64,000 nt of DNA from Parcubacteria group bacterium (GCA_002687175.1 NYZP01000019.1:14629-78628), one strand, 5' to 3'. Positions 9,455 through 60,908 are shown, counted from the stretch's first letter. Program-made: numbers and translations. The notes: a model not told the origin generated them from the letters alone.

Positions 9455-9745
9455 AAAAAGGGTAAGTACTCTAAGAGCACTTACCCACATGGAATCCTTG
9501 AGGCCGTTACAGGCAGTGACGGGGTCGGATTAGCTAAGTTGCGGTATTTCACACCATTGCTGGTTACCCTCCCGAGGAGGACAATTGCGACTAGCTGTTT
9601 CCCAGAGAAAACAGTTCACAGTCTCCCGCATATTCTAGGAAGTAGCCATCCCCTCAATAGGACCAATGCTAGGGATTCGAACCCTAGTACGACCAACCAC
9701 TGTTTCCATGATGCTAAGATATTATTCTAAATTTTAAAAAAAGTC
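9455..9745 (-). ncRNA. candidate small structured RNA of unknown family
   Basis: A ~250 nt GC-rich (~50%) non-coding stretch in a 30% GC genome. On the minus strand a sigma70-like promoter (TTGACT, 17 bp spacer, TAATAT) sits at ~9743-9715. There is a canonical T-loop-like GGTTCGAATCC with a 5-6 bp stem at 9677-9695. Bases near the predicted 5' end (CAUGGA) can pair with UCCAUG just before the 3' hairpin. The 3' end is a hairpin (9460-9486) followed by a U-run on the minus strand. No full tRNA cloverleaf and no tmRNA/RNase P/SRP consensus could be aligned by eye. Confidence 0.3.
9460..9486 (-). terminator. rho-independent terminator hairpin (U-tract on minus strand; may also attenuate plus-strand read-through)
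   Basis: GGGTAAGTACTC-TAA-GAGCACTTACCC forms a 12-bp stem with one mismatch. The A-tract on the plus strand is a U-tract on the minus strand. Confidence 0.55.
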
Positions 9746-9787
9746 AAGGATAAAAAAAGGCCCAACTACGTTAATTCGTAGTCGGGC
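9746..9787 (-). terminator. rho-independent terminator of the GC-rich 3-gene cassette
   Basis: The plus strand reads AAAAAAAGGCCCAACTACG-TTAATT-CGTAGTCGGGC. On the minus strand this is a GC hairpin followed by UUUUUUU, immediately 3' of the stop at 9805. Confidence 0.65.
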
Positions 9788-9804
9788 TTAATGGTTGTAC
9801 GGAT

Positions 9805-10035
9805 TTACAACTCTATTCCTTGTTGCTCCGCCCATTCTCCTAGGGTCAGGTCTCCAGTGTGTTCTTCGTAGAAACCAAACTCTGGATATTCCGTTATACT
9901 GGGATTCTGCTTGGCCTTCTTAAGGGCTTCAACTTTTTTATCGCATTTAGCGACAACCAGTTCTTGCCACTCTTCTTCCGTGTCGATAACTTCACCGACC
10001 TGTCCGGAAAAACCAAATTTTGGCCACTTTGCCAT
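9805..10035 (-). CDS. hypothetical small acidic protein (foreign GC-rich cassette, gene 3 of 3)
   Basis: 76 aa ORF at ~50% GC. A strong RBS AAAGGAG lies 7 nt upstream of the ATG. It is followed by the terminator above. Confidence 0.55.
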   Translation of the reverse strand: MAKWPKFGFSGQVGEVIDTEEEWQELVVAKCDKKVEALKKAKQNPSITEYPEFGFYEEHTGDLTLGEWAEQQGIEL

Positions 10036-10053
10036 TGCACGCTCCTTTCTGGT

Positions 10054-10338
10054 CTAGTCAAAAACCTCGTAGACCTTCTTGGCTTCCAGAAGAATTCCAT
10101 GCCTGCGCGCTATCAAAAGTACGAACTCCTCGGTCAAGTTGCGACCGCCGGTGGTAGTGCGATTATGCTCCTCTACACCGTTGAAGAATTCATCTTGCTC
10201 GGGATCAAAGCATGGCTCTTCAGGATCTCCTTTGGTTAGATCCCATACCTGGACAAAAGCACCAACGGCCGGATGGTGATCGACACCAAACGCCATGGCA
10301 AACTGTGGGCCACTGACAACTTCGCGACTCATTGGCAA
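10054..10338 (-). CDS. hypothetical protein (foreign GC-rich cassette, gene 2 of 3)
   Basis: 94 aa ORF with RBS GAAGGAGA 8 nt upstream of the ATG. It is 12 bp downstream of gene 1 and 18 bp upstream of gene 3. Confidence 0.55.
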   Translation of the reverse strand: MPMSREVVSGPQFAMAFGVDHHPAVGAFVQVWDLTKGDPEEPCFDPEQDEFFNGVEEHNRTTTGGRNLTEEFVLLIARRHGILLEAKKVYEVFD

Positions 10339-10350
10339 TCTCCTTCTCGG

Positions 10351-10899
10351 TTAAACCAGAATTAAATTCCGGTTAAGTTTGATTCTGCTGCCTTGAGGAA
10401 TCTTTTTAAATTCCTTTTTATACGTTGCATACTGTATTGCGGTCTGGTACCAAGTTGACCAACGAAGTTCATAATCACGGCCAGCTGGGTCGTAAATTCT
10501 TTTCAACTCTTCCTTGAGTTTACGCCCGTACCAGCAATTCCTGGCAAAGGCTAAGCCGAGGAGCCAGTAGGCTGGTTCCAAGGTTAATGGCCCGGCAGGA
10601 ACTGCGGGTATGGAAACTTCACCAGTGACCCAGGTTCTGTTTATCGGCGCGCCGATAAAGTGCCTGGCTATAACCACGTTTCTCCCGGCAGCTTTTATTC
10701 CTTCGGCAAAGCTTAAGATGCAGCGATGCCGTGGCATCCATCCACCGAGTGCTTCGCCTAACTCTTTGGCTGGGTCAAAAAACCAAGCCTCACCGCGGGC
10801 GTTAGTCACCAGTACTGAACGCTCATGTTGAGCAAATCCACTTCTAACAATAATGATCTGGTTCTTCAGTCTCTGTTTCATTCCAATATCCTCCGTCAA
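10351..10899 (-). CDS. hypothetical protein, 182 aa (foreign GC-rich cassette, gene 1 of 3)
   Basis: RBS GGAGGA 8 nt upstream of the ATG. GC is ~50% and the codon usage is unlike the flanking genes. No motif I can assign confidently. Confidence 0.55.
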   Translation of the reverse strand: MTEDIGMKQRLKNQIIIVRSGFAQHERSVLVTNARGEAWFFDPAKELGEALGGWMPRHRCILSFAEGIKAAGRNVVIARHFIGAPINRTWVTGEVSIPAVPAGPLTLEPAYWLLGLAFARNCWYGRKLKEELKRIYDPAGRDYELRWSTWYQTAIQYATYKKEFKKIPQGSRIKLNRNLILV

Positions 10900-11112
10900 G
10901 CTCCCACTTGAAAGAAGGAGCTGGTGTTGTTGTGCAAACAGGTTGTAAGGTACTTCACTAAATACGTCAGAATTCGCAATACTAATTTACCTGGTTTAGA
11001 TTCTATATTGTTAGCTATATTTTTAGCTAGATAGAATACTAAAAGTTAATATTTTAGGTAAAAAAATAAGCGAATATCAAACAATTCACTATACACTATT
11101 TTACCAATTTTG

Positions 11113-11487
11113 TCAATGTTTTGTATCTCTTTTCTTCTGTATTAACTGCAAAACAATAAAGGCAATAATACCAAGGGCATCAATACCAACATCCATAATA
11201 CTACCAACACGTCCCAGAACAAAAGATTGATGCCATTCATCAAAGCCGGCATATCCAATGGCAAAAATAAAAGCGACGAATAATGATCGCTTGATGCCTA
11301 GACCAATACCTTTGAATGCATTAAATACTAAATAGGCTAAAACAAAAAATTCTGCACCATGGGCAATTTTTCGAAAAATTAAATCCCAGACTGGCTGTAG
11401 TTCTGATTTTAAATCTGGTTGAGCTGACAGAAAATAGATCAAGTGCATCCAAAAGTAGATGAGTACAAAGTTGATTATTTTTTTCAT
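11113..11487 (-). CDS. VanZ-like family membrane protein
   Basis: 124 aa with 4 predicted TM helices. It has the conserved HGAEFFVLAYL (H-x2-E-[FY]-x2-L) block and the GFDEWHQSF block typical of VanZ-like proteins. Confidence 0.65.
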   Translation of the reverse strand: MKKIINFVLIYFWMHLIYFLSAQPDLKSELQPVWDLIFRKIAHGAEFFVLAYLVFNAFKGIGLGIKRSLFVAFIFAIGYAGFDEWHQSFVLGRVGSIMDVGIDALGIIAFIVLQLIQKKRDTKH

Positions 11488-12817: not shown

Positions 12818-12976
12818 AATTTTACTTAGTTATTCTAACCTATATTTTAATAAATATCAATGATTTTAGCTAAAATTAGCTACTTATTCTCACTATCTAT
12901 TGACAAAATATTAAAAAGTGGAAACAAAAATCACAAACAAATACATCCGCAAGGATGAAAACAAGGAGAATGCCTT

Positions 12977-13249
12977 ATGGCAATTACTGCTGATGACACC
13001 CGTGTTGGGAATGGCAAAGTGACTGATGAAGAGTCAACCGTAGTCTGCCCTTGCTGCGCGGGAATCATGACGGAAGACCCTGACACCCCGAACGGTATGG
13101 GTGTCAAGGGCTACTATGATTGTCCGGTGTGTGGCTTTAGTCACGAGAGTTACCTGCATACGCAGGGAGAAGACGCCGAGATAATACGCCGGGGAGTGGT
13201 CTATATGGACAAACTCGCGGCGGAAGCAGAAAAGGGACGAGGATCTTAG
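12977..13249 (+). CDS. small zinc-ribbon protein (CPCC...CPVC), GC-rich, probably horizontally acquired
   Basis: 90 aa at ~55% GC. Four Cys are arranged CxCC-x21-CPVC. An AAGGAG RBS lies 8 nt upstream of the ATG. It has its own terminator downstream. Confidence 0.55.
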   Translation: MAITADDTRVGNGKVTDEESTVVCPCCAGIMTEDPDTPNGMGVKGYYDCPVCGFSHESYLHTQGEDAEIIRRGVVYMDKLAAEAEKGRGS

Positions 13250-13301
13250 CGAATGCTCGATCTTATCGAGAACTCCGAAGAAAGACCCTAAGCTGCCTCT
13301 C

Positions 13302-13340
13302 CCCCCCCCGGACCCCACCTGATCACGAAAAGTGTGACGG
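13302..13340 (+). terminator. rho-independent terminator
   Basis: GACCCCACC-TGATCACGAAAAGTGTGAC-GGTGGGGTTC followed by TTTTTTT. A poly-C run precedes it. Confidence 0.6.
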
Positions 13341-13380
13341 TGGGGTTCTTTTTTTACCTAAAATTATTAAATTAAAATCA

Positions 13381-13410: not shown

Positions 13411-13453
13411 ACAAACGCTAAAAAATAATAATTTATTAAGAAAGGATAAAACA

Positions 13454-14017
13454 ATGATTAAAATAAATGAACAAATTCCTGATTTAGAGTTTGAAATATT
13501 TCATAATGATGAAGAAAAAAAAGCTAAGTTATCTGACTATAAAGGCAAATGGTTAATTTTAGTATTTTACCCGGCAGATTTTACTTTTATTTGCCCCACT
13601 GAATTACAAGAGCTAGCTAAACATTATGAGGAATTTAAAAAATTAGATGCCGAAATTATCAGTGTTAGTACTGATACTGTCTTTGTTCATAAAGCCTGGC
13701 ATGATAATTCCGAGGCAATTAAGCAAGTACAATACCCAATGGCGGCTGACCCAACTGGAAAAATTTGTCGTGCCTTTGGAACTTACATTGAAGACGAGGG
13801 GCTTTCATTGCGAGGTAGTTTTATTATCGACCCTGATGGTTATCTAAAATCTTCCGAAATTCACGATAACAGCATTGGCCGAAGTGCCAAAGAACTCTTA
13901 CGAACTCTTCAGGCTGCTAAATTTGTCAAGGAACACAAGGGACAGGTGTGTCCGGCCAGCTGGGAACCAGGCGAAGATACCTTAGAACCAGGTATGGATC
14001 TTGTGGGTAAAATATAA
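13454..14017 (+). CDS. typical 2-Cys peroxiredoxin (AhpC/TSA family)
   Basis: Peroxidatic Cys in FTFICPTEL and resolving Cys in GQVCPASW. The most plausible start is the internal Met (MIKINEQIPD), which lies after a GGA-containing RBS. Confidence 0.8.
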   Translation: MIKINEQIPDLEFEIFHNDEEKKAKLSDYKGKWLILVFYPADFTFICPTELQELAKHYEEFKKLDAEIISVSTDTVFVHKAWHDNSEAIKQVQYPMAADPTGKICRAFGTYIEDEGLSLRGSFIIDPDGYLKSSEIHDNSIGRSAKELLRTLQAAKFVKEHKGQVCPASWEPGEDTLEPGMDLVGKI

Positions 14018-14046
14018 ATATACCTCACAAATAAAATTAACATCGT

Positions 14047-15162
14047 ATGAGCGCTAAAAATCAAATTTCTAATCTCCTGGCAAAAGCTGATGTTAAAATT
14101 AACGGAAAACGTTCGTGGGATATTCAAGTAAAAAACGAGGCTTTGTACAGTCGATTAATGTCGCAAGGTTCAATGGGCCTCGGTGAATCGTACATGGATG
14201 GCTGGTGGGAATCTGCTGAGCTGGATGAATTTTTTTCTAAAATTTTATCTGCTGATTTAAGTTCACAGATTAAACCAAGTCCGGCATTAATCTTTTCTTA
14301 CCTTAGGAGTAAAATGTTCAACCTACAGAAAAGCTCTCGAGCTTTCCAGATTGGCGAAAGACACTACGATGTCGGCAATGATTTGTACCAAGTAATGCTG
14401 GATAAACGAATGGTTTACACTTGTGCTTATTGGGACAAAGGGGCAAAAAATCTAGATGCTGCCCAGGAAGATAAACTTGATCTAGTTTGTAAAAAAATGA
14501 AATTTAAAAAGGGCCAGCGGGTATTAGATATTGGCTGTGGCTGGGGTAGTTTTGCTAAATATGCCGCTGAAAAATGTGGCGTCAAGGTTGTTGGGGTAAC
14601 AGTGTCTAAAAATCAAGTAAAATTGGGGAACAAATTATGCAAAGGCTTACCAGTTGAATTAAGACTGCAAGATTATCGCGAACTAAATGAAAAATTTGAC
14701 CACATTGTATCCTTGGGAATGTTTGAACATGTTGGTAAAAAAAATTATAGAACATACATGGAGGTGGCTTCAAGAAACTTAAAAGATAATGGACTTTTTT
14801 TACTACAAACTATTGGTAGTAATTTATCAACCAAATCACTCGATCCCTGGATTGAAAAATATATTTTTCCTAATTCAATTCTGCCATCAATCTCAGAAAT
14901 TGCCAAAGCCTCCGAGAATATATTCATCATGGAAGATTGGCACAATTTCTCTTATGATTATTATCTAACTCTAAAAAGCTGGTTTAATAATTTTGATTCA
15001 CACTGGGATGAACTTAAACAAAATTATGATCAACGGTTTTACAATATGTGGAAGTATTACTTAAAATCAACCGCCGGTGGTTTTAAGTCCCGTTCTATCC
15101 AGCTGTGGCAAGTAGTACTGTCTAAGCACGGTGTTACTGGTGGTTACAAGTCGGTGAGGTAA
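14047..15162 (+). CDS. cfa: cyclopropane-fatty-acyl-phospholipid synthase family SAM methyltransferase
   Basis: VLDIGCGWGSFAKYAAEKCGVKVVGVTVSKNQ matches motif I and the post-I block of the CFA synthase/mycolic acid cyclopropane synthase family. Length 371 aa. Confidence 0.75.
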   Translation: MSAKNQISNLLAKADVKINGKRSWDIQVKNEALYSRLMSQGSMGLGESYMDGWWESAELDEFFSKILSADLSSQIKPSPALIFSYLRSKMFNLQKSSRAFQIGERHYDVGNDLYQVMLDKRMVYTCAYWDKGAKNLDAAQEDKLDLVCKKMKFKKGQRVLDIGCGWGSFAKYAAEKCGVKVVGVTVSKNQVKLGNKLCKGLPVELRLQDYRELNEKFDHIVSLGMFEHVGKKNYRTYMEVASRNLKDNGLFLLQTIGSNLSTKSLDPWIEKYIFPNSILPSISEIAKASENIFIMEDWHNFSYDYYLTLKSWFNNFDSHWDELKQNYDQRFYNMWKYYLKSTAGGFKSRSIQLWQVVLSKHGVTGGYKSVR

Positions 15163-59825: not shown

Positions 59826-60908
59826 TTGTTGGCATTACGTCAATTTGCACCTATAAAACTCAGAGGAGAGATACTGATGGAAATTACATTGTTTGATTTC
59901 GTGCTTCATGTCATGGAAGAGATTGACAAGCAACGCATTCGGCTCAAAGATCAGATCTCCCAAGCGGTTGAGTCAACTGATCGAGGTAAACAACAAGCTC
60001 GGCTGGAACAATGGATTTATGATTTTCTCAAACAAGAAGTCATGGAATCACTCAAGTCGATGAATGCGGGGGTTCGGCTCAATGCTGAAGGTTATGAACC
60101 AGTAGAAAACGGCTTACCGGTAGAACAAGTGATCAATATTGATCCTTGGGATGGCACGGCCAATGGTTGTCGCTTCATAGATGGCGGTCAGCAAATTGGC
60201 TCCTCCTTTGCGACGGTGATCTCGGTAATGCCGGAAATGGAAAATACGACGTTTGGTGATGTTTAAATCGGCGCTGGACTTGACCTTCGTACCGGACAGT
60301 ATTGGATTGCTGAAGTAGGACGAGGGGCTTTTAGTGGAATTGAGGCAGCTCAAAGATCAACAATTCAAAGATCAGAAATACAACAGCTGGCTCCAAATCC
60401 TCAGTACCACCGCCACAGTCCATTACTGGCCTCTGAGTTCTGTCGTCAGATCAATTGGCTCACTCGTTTGCTGATCAACCAACCAGTTGAATGGACCGAC
60501 TGCGCTAGCAGTTTCATCAACATGCTACGGGTTGCTCTTGGTGAAACTGACTGTTTCTTCAATAATGTTTTCCCATCAATCTCCAAGGAGGGACAGCGTG
60601 GACACGAACTTGGTGCCATGATGCCGTTCATTAAAGAACTTGGGGCTTGTGCCATTGATACCAGAACTGGTAAAAATCTAATGACAACACCTTTCACCTT
60701 TGACGGTATGACACCGGTGATGATCGGCGTTGACGAAGATACGGTCAAGTACTACAAAGAAATGATGGAGGAAAATCTTGAACAAGAAATTCAAATTTAT
60801 CCTGGGCTGGCTATAAAGCTTCGAGATCTGATTCCGGCCATTCATAACGGAATTGGCACTCAGCGCTGGTCTCATCGAGATCTACCACGAGCTAAAGTCG
60901 AAGTTTAA
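59826..60908 (+). pseudogene. GC-rich inositol-monophosphatase-like gene split by one in-frame TAA (two ORFs in the same frame)
   Basis: ORFs 59826-60266 and 60468-60908 are in the same frame, with no other stop between them. The first contains the IMPase-family DPxDGT-like block INIDPWDGTANGCRF. A strong RBS (GAGGAGAG) precedes the internal ATG at 59877. Both annotated ORF starts are TTG. GC is ~45% against ~30% background. A terminator follows at 60920-60950. Confidence 0.5.

Follow-up and report, generated by a model that had tools for sequence, protein, structure and literature searches.

How did a compact block of GC-rich genes, each led by a strong Shine-Dalgarno (SD) site, come to lie in the AT-rich genome of a Parcubacteria bacterium, and do these genes form a system of their own? 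The block, a 1.1-kb cassette of three small minus-strand genes that we refer to as A, B and C, lies in a window of 64,000 nucleotides (nt) from Parcubacteria group bacterium (GCA_002687175.1, NYZP01000019.1:14629-78628), i.e., the whole stretch of DNA analyzed here, with positions counted from its first letter. A first-pass annotation had proposed that the cassette was horizontally acquired, which is borne out by a composition, codon usage and SD usage off the host range, by relatives of A and B in genomes or contigs of ca. 50% GC and by a relative of B in a phage contig. The additional suggestion of a novel small toxin-antitoxin or anti-phage system was not sustained, given that the three genes never co-occur elsewhere, that C has no relatives and that the searched family libraries gave no match. 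We conclude that the cassette is probably a recently acquired, mosaic accessory operon of three evolutionarily unrelated genes and not a conserved multi-gene system.

Composition and anatomy of the cassette

As host reference, we used 54 long open reading frames (ORFs) of the window. Sliding GC content within the cassette is 0.46-0.54 compared to ca. 0.33 across the window, and genes A, B and C have GC contents of 0.48, 0.51 and 0.45, whereas host genes average 0.336 (standard deviation 0.027), which makes for an overall excess of ca. 12 to 17 points. At third codon positions (GC3), the values are 0.47, 0.53 and 0.44 versus 0.264 for the host (standard deviation 0.042, maximum 0.37), which corresponds to z-scores of 5.0 for A, 6.3 for B and 4.3 for C. 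The elevated GC that the first-pass annotation had put at about 20 points above the flanking genes hence reappears on recomputation, with the difference that 20 points are reached only at third codon positions. Similarly, the Karlin codon bias B(F|C) of the cassette genes is 0.47-0.71 versus 0.25 for the host (standard deviation 0.07). When the SD core was scored as GGAG or GAGG at -18..-5, it was found for 3 of the 54 host genes and for 5 of 6 ORFs in GC-rich islets of the window (Fisher p = 6e-5; the other islets are described below), in keeping with the early impression that host genes mostly lack strong SD sites; the regions upstream of host ORFs are A/T-only. Composition, codon usage and SD usage of the cassette all lie far beyond the range of the host, and uniform composition was found neither by sliding GC nor by codon usage.

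The anti-SD motif has been detected in only 48% of Parcubacteria 16S rRNAs, and some Parcubacteria are accordingly presumed to form no SD helices (PMC9297842). Because only 3 of its 54 genes carry an SD core, our host fits the subgroup of Parcubacteria without a detected anti-SD, a resemblance drawn from the scarcity of SD sites, as the 16S rRNA gene lies outside the window. With the anti-SD found in only 48% of Parcubacteria 16S rRNAs, the SD sites of the cassette may or may not still work. If the host lacks an anti-SD, its SD-bearing islets would amount to a natural experiment on the translation of foreign SD-led genes in such hosts.

The cassette consists of the following features:

10351..10881, minus strand: gene A, 176 amino acids (aa), ATG at 10881 and stop at 10351; basic, isoelectric point (pI) 10.1
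10054..10332, minus strand: gene B, 92 aa, ATG at 10332 and stop at 10054; acidic, pI 4.7
9805..10035, minus strand: gene C, 76 aa, ATG start; acidic, pI 4.5; an orphan with the internal repeat P(K/E)FGF, seen at the DNA level as well
10889..10894, minus strand: SD site of gene A, GGAGGA, 7 nt to the ATG by direct reading
10340..10345, minus strand: SD site of gene B, AAGGAG, 7 nt to the ATG by direct reading
10042..10047, minus strand: SD site of gene C, AAGGAG, 6 nt to the ATG by direct reading
9752..9787, minus strand: intrinsic terminator of the operon, an 11-bp stem at 9787-9760 with 7 GC pairs, then T7 (CTTTTTTTAT)
11044..11116, minus strand: two overlapping candidate promoters of the sigma-70 type ahead of the cassette, from a consensus scan only and with a presumed function

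The gaps between A and B and between B and C are exactly 18 nt each, and the encoded proteins carry net charges of +14 for A and of -9 and -8 for B and C. For the orphan gene C, GC content falls from the first over the third to the second codon position (0.60, 0.44 and 0.32), which is a coding-like pattern. Among the ORF sizes first given as 182, 94 and 76 aa, only the last is retained, since A and B have been shortened to ATG starts from TTG starts at 10899 and 10338, respectively. A canonical AAGGAG or GGAGGA does precede each of the three ORFs, as had been said, though at 6-7 nt instead of 7-8 nt, and the run is indeed closed by a GC hairpin with a T7 tract that we place at 9787-9752 (formerly 9746-9787). 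Rfam returned nothing above noise for the cassette, and its sub-threshold matches at the terminator reflect the hairpin only. Upstream, the two promoter candidates of the consensus scan read TTGACA-17-TATAGT (11116-11088) and TTGATA-18-TAAAAT (11080-11051), both just beyond the vanZ stop, and are separated from gene A by an AT-rich leader of 160-190 nt (10882-11044). From this anatomy, one would expect a single mRNA that starts at a host-type TTGA-35/-10 promoter on the downstream side of vanZ and ends at the terminator (9787-9752).

The first-pass annotation had raised the possibility of a chimeric join. We found the cassette with both of its junctions at 99.99-100% identity in the separately assembled datasets ERZ11848503 and ERZ909154 of the European Nucleotide Archive (ENA) and SRR5321589 of Logan and, because these independent assemblies are identical across both joins, the cassette is not chimeric. 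Joint Genome Institute (JGI) dataset 3300035205 has a match in this range of identity to the cassette only, and the cassette proteins are annotated in a Tara Oceans Parcubacteria metagenome-assembled genome (MAG) as CMI53_03165, CMI53_03170 and CMI53_03175. Three short contigs of other assemblies (L055-L057) have differing starts in vanZ and all end at 11047 or 11048, and one JGI contig (L003) spans only the GC-rich cassette (10940-9803). These contig ends might stem from a drop in coverage within the AT-rich leader or else mark a junction that exists in the population. The neighbors of the cassette encode VanZ, GT4/GT2 glycosyltransferases, methyltransferases and a peroxiredoxin, and their Pfam tags (GT4, GT2, PMT_2 and GtrA) agree with the glycan locus that had been recognized before; no defense genes were seen among the flanking genes and their Pfam tags.

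Relatives of the three genes

A word-indexed search of 5.8 billion proteins with gene A recovered only A itself. When 1.84 billion cluster representatives were searched in full with HMMER, we detected 30 remote homologues (E 6e-20 to 9e-4) that are mostly 140-150 aa long and share 32-45% identity; with clustering at 50% identity, the family comprises about 30 clusters. Their full-length alignment is hallmarked by R13, E20, DPxxE at 36-40, R51, SFAxGxxAAG at 57-66, G109 and W117 (numbering of A). All named members come from Patescibacteria, Uhrbacteria or Parcubacteria, and the genomes or contigs that carry them, including Patescibacteria and Uhrbacteria MAGs of about 50-54% GC, have ca. 46-54% GC. 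Judging by these homologues, A is a member of a rare, real but unnamed family that is so far known only from the candidate phyla radiation (CPR). AlphaFold2 run with the family alignment gave a confident model (predicted local distance difference test, pLDDT, of 89.5 and predicted template-modeling score, pTM, of 0.86) of an N-terminal βββααββ unit followed by three C-terminal helices, whereas a prediction from the single sequence was useless (pLDDT 35). A Foldseek search with this model returned no structural neighbor, i.e., nothing with E<0.1 in PDB or BFVD, and PDB sequence searches with the cassette proteins gave nothing significant. None of the three proteins matches Pfam, PHROGs, PADLOC or NCBIfam (0 families at E ≤ 1 in PADLOC-DB v2), so that the first-pass statement that none belongs to a nameable family stands, with the family of A being real but unnamed. 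The same libraries gave no match for any of the 31 members of this family, with the exception of one TerB fusion. This protein, P0023 from a 1.1-kb ENA contig, joins an N-terminal A domain (ca. 105 aa) to a C-terminal TerB domain (Pfam E = 5e-9) and is the only domain association that we found for the family.

We inspected homologues of A in eight other contexts, including the short contigs L045-L047, and found no homologue of B or C near any of them. In five longer contigs, the A homologue is solitary and without conserved neighbors. In a Patescibacteria MAG of ca. 50% GC (L005), it is flanked by DEAD-box helicase and transporter genes; in a Candidatus Uhrbacteria MAG (L006), by rsmB-like and trmD genes, with unrelated neighbors of 88 aa and 120 aa; and in a 951-kb contig (L052), by ruvC and rpoC. 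In a 352-kb contig (L053), it lies beside the mur/ftsW cluster. At L050 and L051, it is followed by an ORF with a putative CX5R(S) motif, which may hint at a low-molecular-weight phosphatase, and then by a 79-aa ORF. The small ORFs that trail A homologues are similar neither to one another nor to B or C. Taken together with the predicted structure, these neighborhoods suggest that A is a real, conserved and folded protein that acts without fixed partners.

The closest homologue of A (42% identity; L007/L049) heads a 1.6-kb islet of 0.48-0.53 GC that is wedged between corA and dus (7131-8743 of L049) in a CPR contig of 0.38-0.42 GC whose other genes have 0.37-0.44 GC and mostly lack SD sites. 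Strong SD sites (GGGAGGAG, AAGGAGGTG and TAGGAGGGG) precede the three small, unrelated ORFs of 80, 95 and 63 aa that follow this homologue; at the annotated start of the homologue itself, no SD site is evident. The same 15.5-kb contig, from JGI dataset 3300029288, carries further GC-rich, SD-led ORFs at 1115-1417 and 13448-14654 as well as a VirD4/TraG-like coupling protein and an IS200-type Y1 transposase.

Upstream of all inspected genes of the A family, including those at seven other loci, we found a -35 box of the TTGACAAAA type, and beyond this promoter the leaders of the A homologues gave no convincing alignment. The three closest A genes have leaders of 190-240 nt with TAGCTA/TTAGCT palindromes and a CTGACG motif (10882-11116 of the window, about 6930-7215 of L049 and about 520-785 of L045). 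The leaders of the A family could be an operator or a leader RNA.

For gene B, exactly two relatives are known, and the three sequences align with conserved residues. The first, P0003, is 58% identical and lies on a 1.7-kb JGI contig of 50% GC downstream of a gene for a large secreted-type protein that may be PA14-like. The second is an 87-aa ORF of 55% identity in a 222-kb viral contig of IMG/VR (IMGVR_UViG_3300017971_000190; L048), where it belongs to a series of small ORFs that all point the same way. Neither relative (at locus L004 for P0003) has a homologue of A alongside. Between 4661 and 14900 of its 221,679 nt, the viral contig has five tRNA genes (Ser, Pro, Gln, Val and Lys) amid small ORFs, and the same region also has an RNA-ligase-like ORF with a KxDG motif that matches phrog_548 as well as an ORF matching a PHROG annotated "polymerase", which we assume to be PARP-like, so that the B homologue has tRNA and RNA-repair genes around it. 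A gene of the B type is thus common to the cassette and a huge phage. Against GenBank phages, tblastn of B gave nothing significant. We had also considered B as an EF-hand protein and rejected this idea, as it resembles the calmodulin C-lobe only below the threshold (E about 0.05) and lacks a canonical Ca-binding loop. Gene C found only itself among the 5.8 billion proteins and has no relative in IMG/VR.

Origin of the cassette and competing explanations

Horizontal transfer of islands and single genes is frequent in Patescibacteria and, according to Gios et al. (2025, mSystems; PMC12455944), stems mostly from other Patescibacteria and partly from transfer via viruses. Our cassette would have come from a GC-richer (ca. 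50%), SD-using pool, i.e., other Patescibacteria or CPR bacteria and/or their phages, into the AT-rich (33.6% GC) genome of a marine Parcubacteria bacterium with genes that are almost never SD-led. Homologues of A and B lie in phylogenetically distant genomes or contigs of matching composition, as would be expected for an acquired islet. The transfer would be recent and either CPR-to-CPR or phage-mediated, the three genes may have been joined by chance or by serial insertion, and the SD sites and GC3 would be relics of the donor that have not yet been ameliorated. Elsewhere, A seems to work alone as a basic protein of an α/β unit plus helices. At a tentative guess, A could be nucleic-acid-binding or regulatory, as its strong positive charge, its own promoter and its long leader might hint, with B and C as independent acidic passengers of the phage "moron" type.

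Several findings weigh against this interpretation as a mosaic operon of recent arrival. Scanning metagenomes with the flanking methyltransferase gave only proteins of 26-44% identity and no relative with an empty site, so that the acquisition is deduced from composition and distribution instead of a before/after comparison. No integrase or transposase was found within 10 kb of the cassette, no target-site duplication or convincing flanking direct repeats at its borders and no intact tRNA gene anywhere in the window, and the mechanism of insertion can therefore not be read from the borders. Two pattern sets turned up no member of the A family in IMG/VR, and tblastn of A from the window against GenBank phages gave nothing significant, which leaves only B as a tie between the cassette and phages; at the DNA level (blastn), neither GenBank phages nor PLSDB plasmids matched the cassette. 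In addition, with the host 16S rRNA gene outside the window, the loss of the anti-SD in this very organism is something that we infer, and the guess at the function of A draws solely on its charge and autonomy, given that its confident model has no structural neighbor.

Could the genes instead be native, with their GC content and SD sites shaped by selection, e.g., for very high expression? Such an origin would sit well with our finding that all long contigs with an identical vanZ or methyltransferase gene also carry the cassette, 100% identical across samples, which shows that it is fixed in the sampled population. Yet it is extremely improbable in light of a GC3 that is 18 to 27 points higher and a codon bias that is off by 3-6 standard deviations, matched by 0 of the 54 host genes, and we know of no expression signature that involves synonymous GC enrichment of such size. 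Relatives of A and B were also found in distant, GC-richer lineages and not in close relatives, and a comparable islet that carries other cargo is present in a second AT-rich CPR genome. GC-rich stretches in AT-rich genomes are often structured RNAs, and the adjoining region at 9455-9725 does resemble a non-coding RNA, but we consider it next to inconceivable that the cassette is itself a large structured RNA with accidental ORFs: three consecutive same-strand ORFs fill the stretch with an SD site at 6-7 nt from each ATG, conserved residues are shared between A or B and their homologues at the protein level, the alignment of A yields a model of high pLDDT and Rfam had nothing above noise. An integrated remnant of a phage or mobile element, in which the genes would be surviving morons and a T-arm downstream would be a leftover attachment site, has in its favor the homologue of B amid tRNA genes and phage-type ORFs of the 222-kb contig, the T-arm-like sequence GGTTCGAATCC with a flanking stem at 9665-9690 (60 nt past the terminator) and a weak match of a zinc-ribbon ORF in a second islet to phrog_6504 (E = 1.5e-4). 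Nonetheless, this scenario is unlikely, because neither phage hallmark genes (capsid or terminase) nor an integrase or recombinase are present within 10 kb on either side, flanking direct repeats and an intact tRNA gene are lacking as described above, the T-arm motif on its own, with ≤1 mismatch allowed, is a chance outcome in 33% of shuffles, A and C are without phage relatives and the entire foreign stretch measures only about 1.1-1.5 kb.

The idea of a toxin-antitoxin or an abortive-infection or other defense module, with A as effector and B and/or C as neutralizing partners, is suggested by small and tightly spaced operon genes that pair a basic protein (+14) with acidic ones (-9 and -8), by their horizontal acquisition and by the small same-strand ORFs that often trail A homologues. 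We nevertheless judge it very unlikely. No gene of the cassette has a match in the defense and family libraries, and A stands alone between core genes, such as ruvC and rpoC, or beside the mur/ftsW cluster, as a toxin in need of a cognate antitoxin could hardly do. Moreover, the ORFs that trail A are homologous neither to each other nor to B or C and no conserved adjacent pair exists, B is found without A and the neighbors of the cassette are glycosyltransferases and not defense genes. On the sequence side, our searches brought up nothing in favor of toxin-antitoxin or defense activity, the exclusion of which would need experiments. It also seems quite unlikely to us that A represents a CPR-only family of new fold that moves between Patescibacteria genomes as a unit of promoter, leader and gene with variable small-ORF cargo, i.e., a minimal mobile or conflict module of a kind not recognized before; if true, this unit might be, e.g., a single-protein defense, exclusion or DNA-binding element.

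Other islets, nearby elements and known systems

The mosaic accessory operon that we favor is not the only GC-rich insertion in this region. Two further islets lie within the 64 kb, each with its own TTGACA-type promoter and GC-rich terminator:

12977-13249, plus strand: ORF of islet 2 (islet at about 12900-13350), a 90-aa acidic zinc ribbon (CxxC...CxxC) with an AAGGAG SD site
59877-60908, plus strand: islet 3, a 1-kb unit of 0.44-0.50 GC; first ORF with AGGAG, second without an SD core

Islet 2 has a GC content of 0.53, a GC3 of 0.54 and the promoter TTGACAAAA, and its ORF, aside from the weak phrog_6504 match mentioned above, has no relative in IMG/VR. Islet 3 consists of one 343-codon frame that is broken by an in-frame TAA at 60264-60266; it contains an IDPWDGT motif and has a weak, below-cutoff match to Inositol_P (PF00459, E = 0.044) across the stop. 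Islet 3 probably represents an acquired gene in decay or else some oddity of sequencing or recoding. Since both the L049 contig and this window hold comparable islets, small GC-rich and mostly SD-led units are a recurrent type of insertion in SD-poor, AT-rich CPR genomes. An exact 16-nt repeat, TTTTTTTACCTAAAAT, is found only at 11051-11066 (minus strand) and 13349-13364 (plus strand), in inverted orientation, with one copy upstream of the cassette leader and the other just past the terminator of islet 2. As a border signal shared by islets it was discarded, since a terminator tail followed by a -10 box (TAAAAT) accounts for it best.

The stretch immediately beyond the cassette terminator (9455-9725, minus strand) is a candidate non-coding RNA of ca. 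250 nt, equipped with a promoter of its own, TTGACT-17-TAATAT (9747-9719), and with a terminator of a 12-bp hairpin plus a T run (9486-9460). Its GC content is 44-45%, and a long-range helix closing its 5' and 3' ends is predicted with a minimum free energy of -90.9 kcal/mol (z = -2.4). A tRNA-like T-arm, CUAGGGUUCGAAUCCCUAG, lies within it at about 9665-9690. The region could not be assigned to transfer-messenger RNA (tmRNA), tRNA or an Rfam RNA, as ARAGORN and Rfam gave nothing except for a "tRNA-???" at the 70% threshold and no homologue was found, nor could an acceptor stem be paired manually for a permuted tmRNA.

How does the cassette compare with known systems? Like type II toxin-antitoxin operons, it has small, adjacent, apparently co-transcribed genes of opposite charge that seem horizontally mobile, but it lacks toxin or antitoxin homology and a conserved pairing, and A is solitary in several genomes. 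With phage morons and the small-ORF clusters of huge phages, it shares the layout of a self-contained unit of promoter, genes and terminator as well as small acidic proteins, and the 55%-identical homologue of B lies in just such a small-ORF and tRNA region of a 222-kb phage contig. The cassette differs from them in its location outside of a prophage, with no phage structural or replication genes nearby, and in that A and C are without phage relatives. Protein families of unknown function that are enriched in the CPR are known from surveys of the family content of CPR genomes, and the A family resembles them in that all of its named members are Patescibacteria and that no Pfam or NCBIfam model covers it. 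Unlike them, it is undescribed in the libraries that we searched, and its predicted fold has no neighbor in PDB or BFVD. An uncharacterized family with a confidently predicted fold of this kind is a reasonable structural or functional target.

We see no sign of a new biological mechanism, and the importance of the cassette is modest, as a clean and small case of gene flow, from one CPR bacterium to another or by way of phages, into the streamlined genome of a Parcubacteria bacterium. In lineages that are largely past SD-led initiation, SD sites can serve as a fingerprint of the donor and could help to date or trace transfers. The closest likeness is to the genomic islets of Patescibacteria/CPR genomes (Gios et al., PMC12455944), which are likewise compositionally atypical blocks among host genes, share the likely donors (Patescibacteria or their viruses) and carry accessory cargo of unknown or regulatory function. 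Compared to these islets, our cassette is very small (1.1 kb and three genes), has no mobility gene and includes SD sites in its donor signature, a marker that goes unmentioned in the abstract of Gios et al. It is a fresh example of the already known small islets of horizontal gene transfer in CPR genomes.

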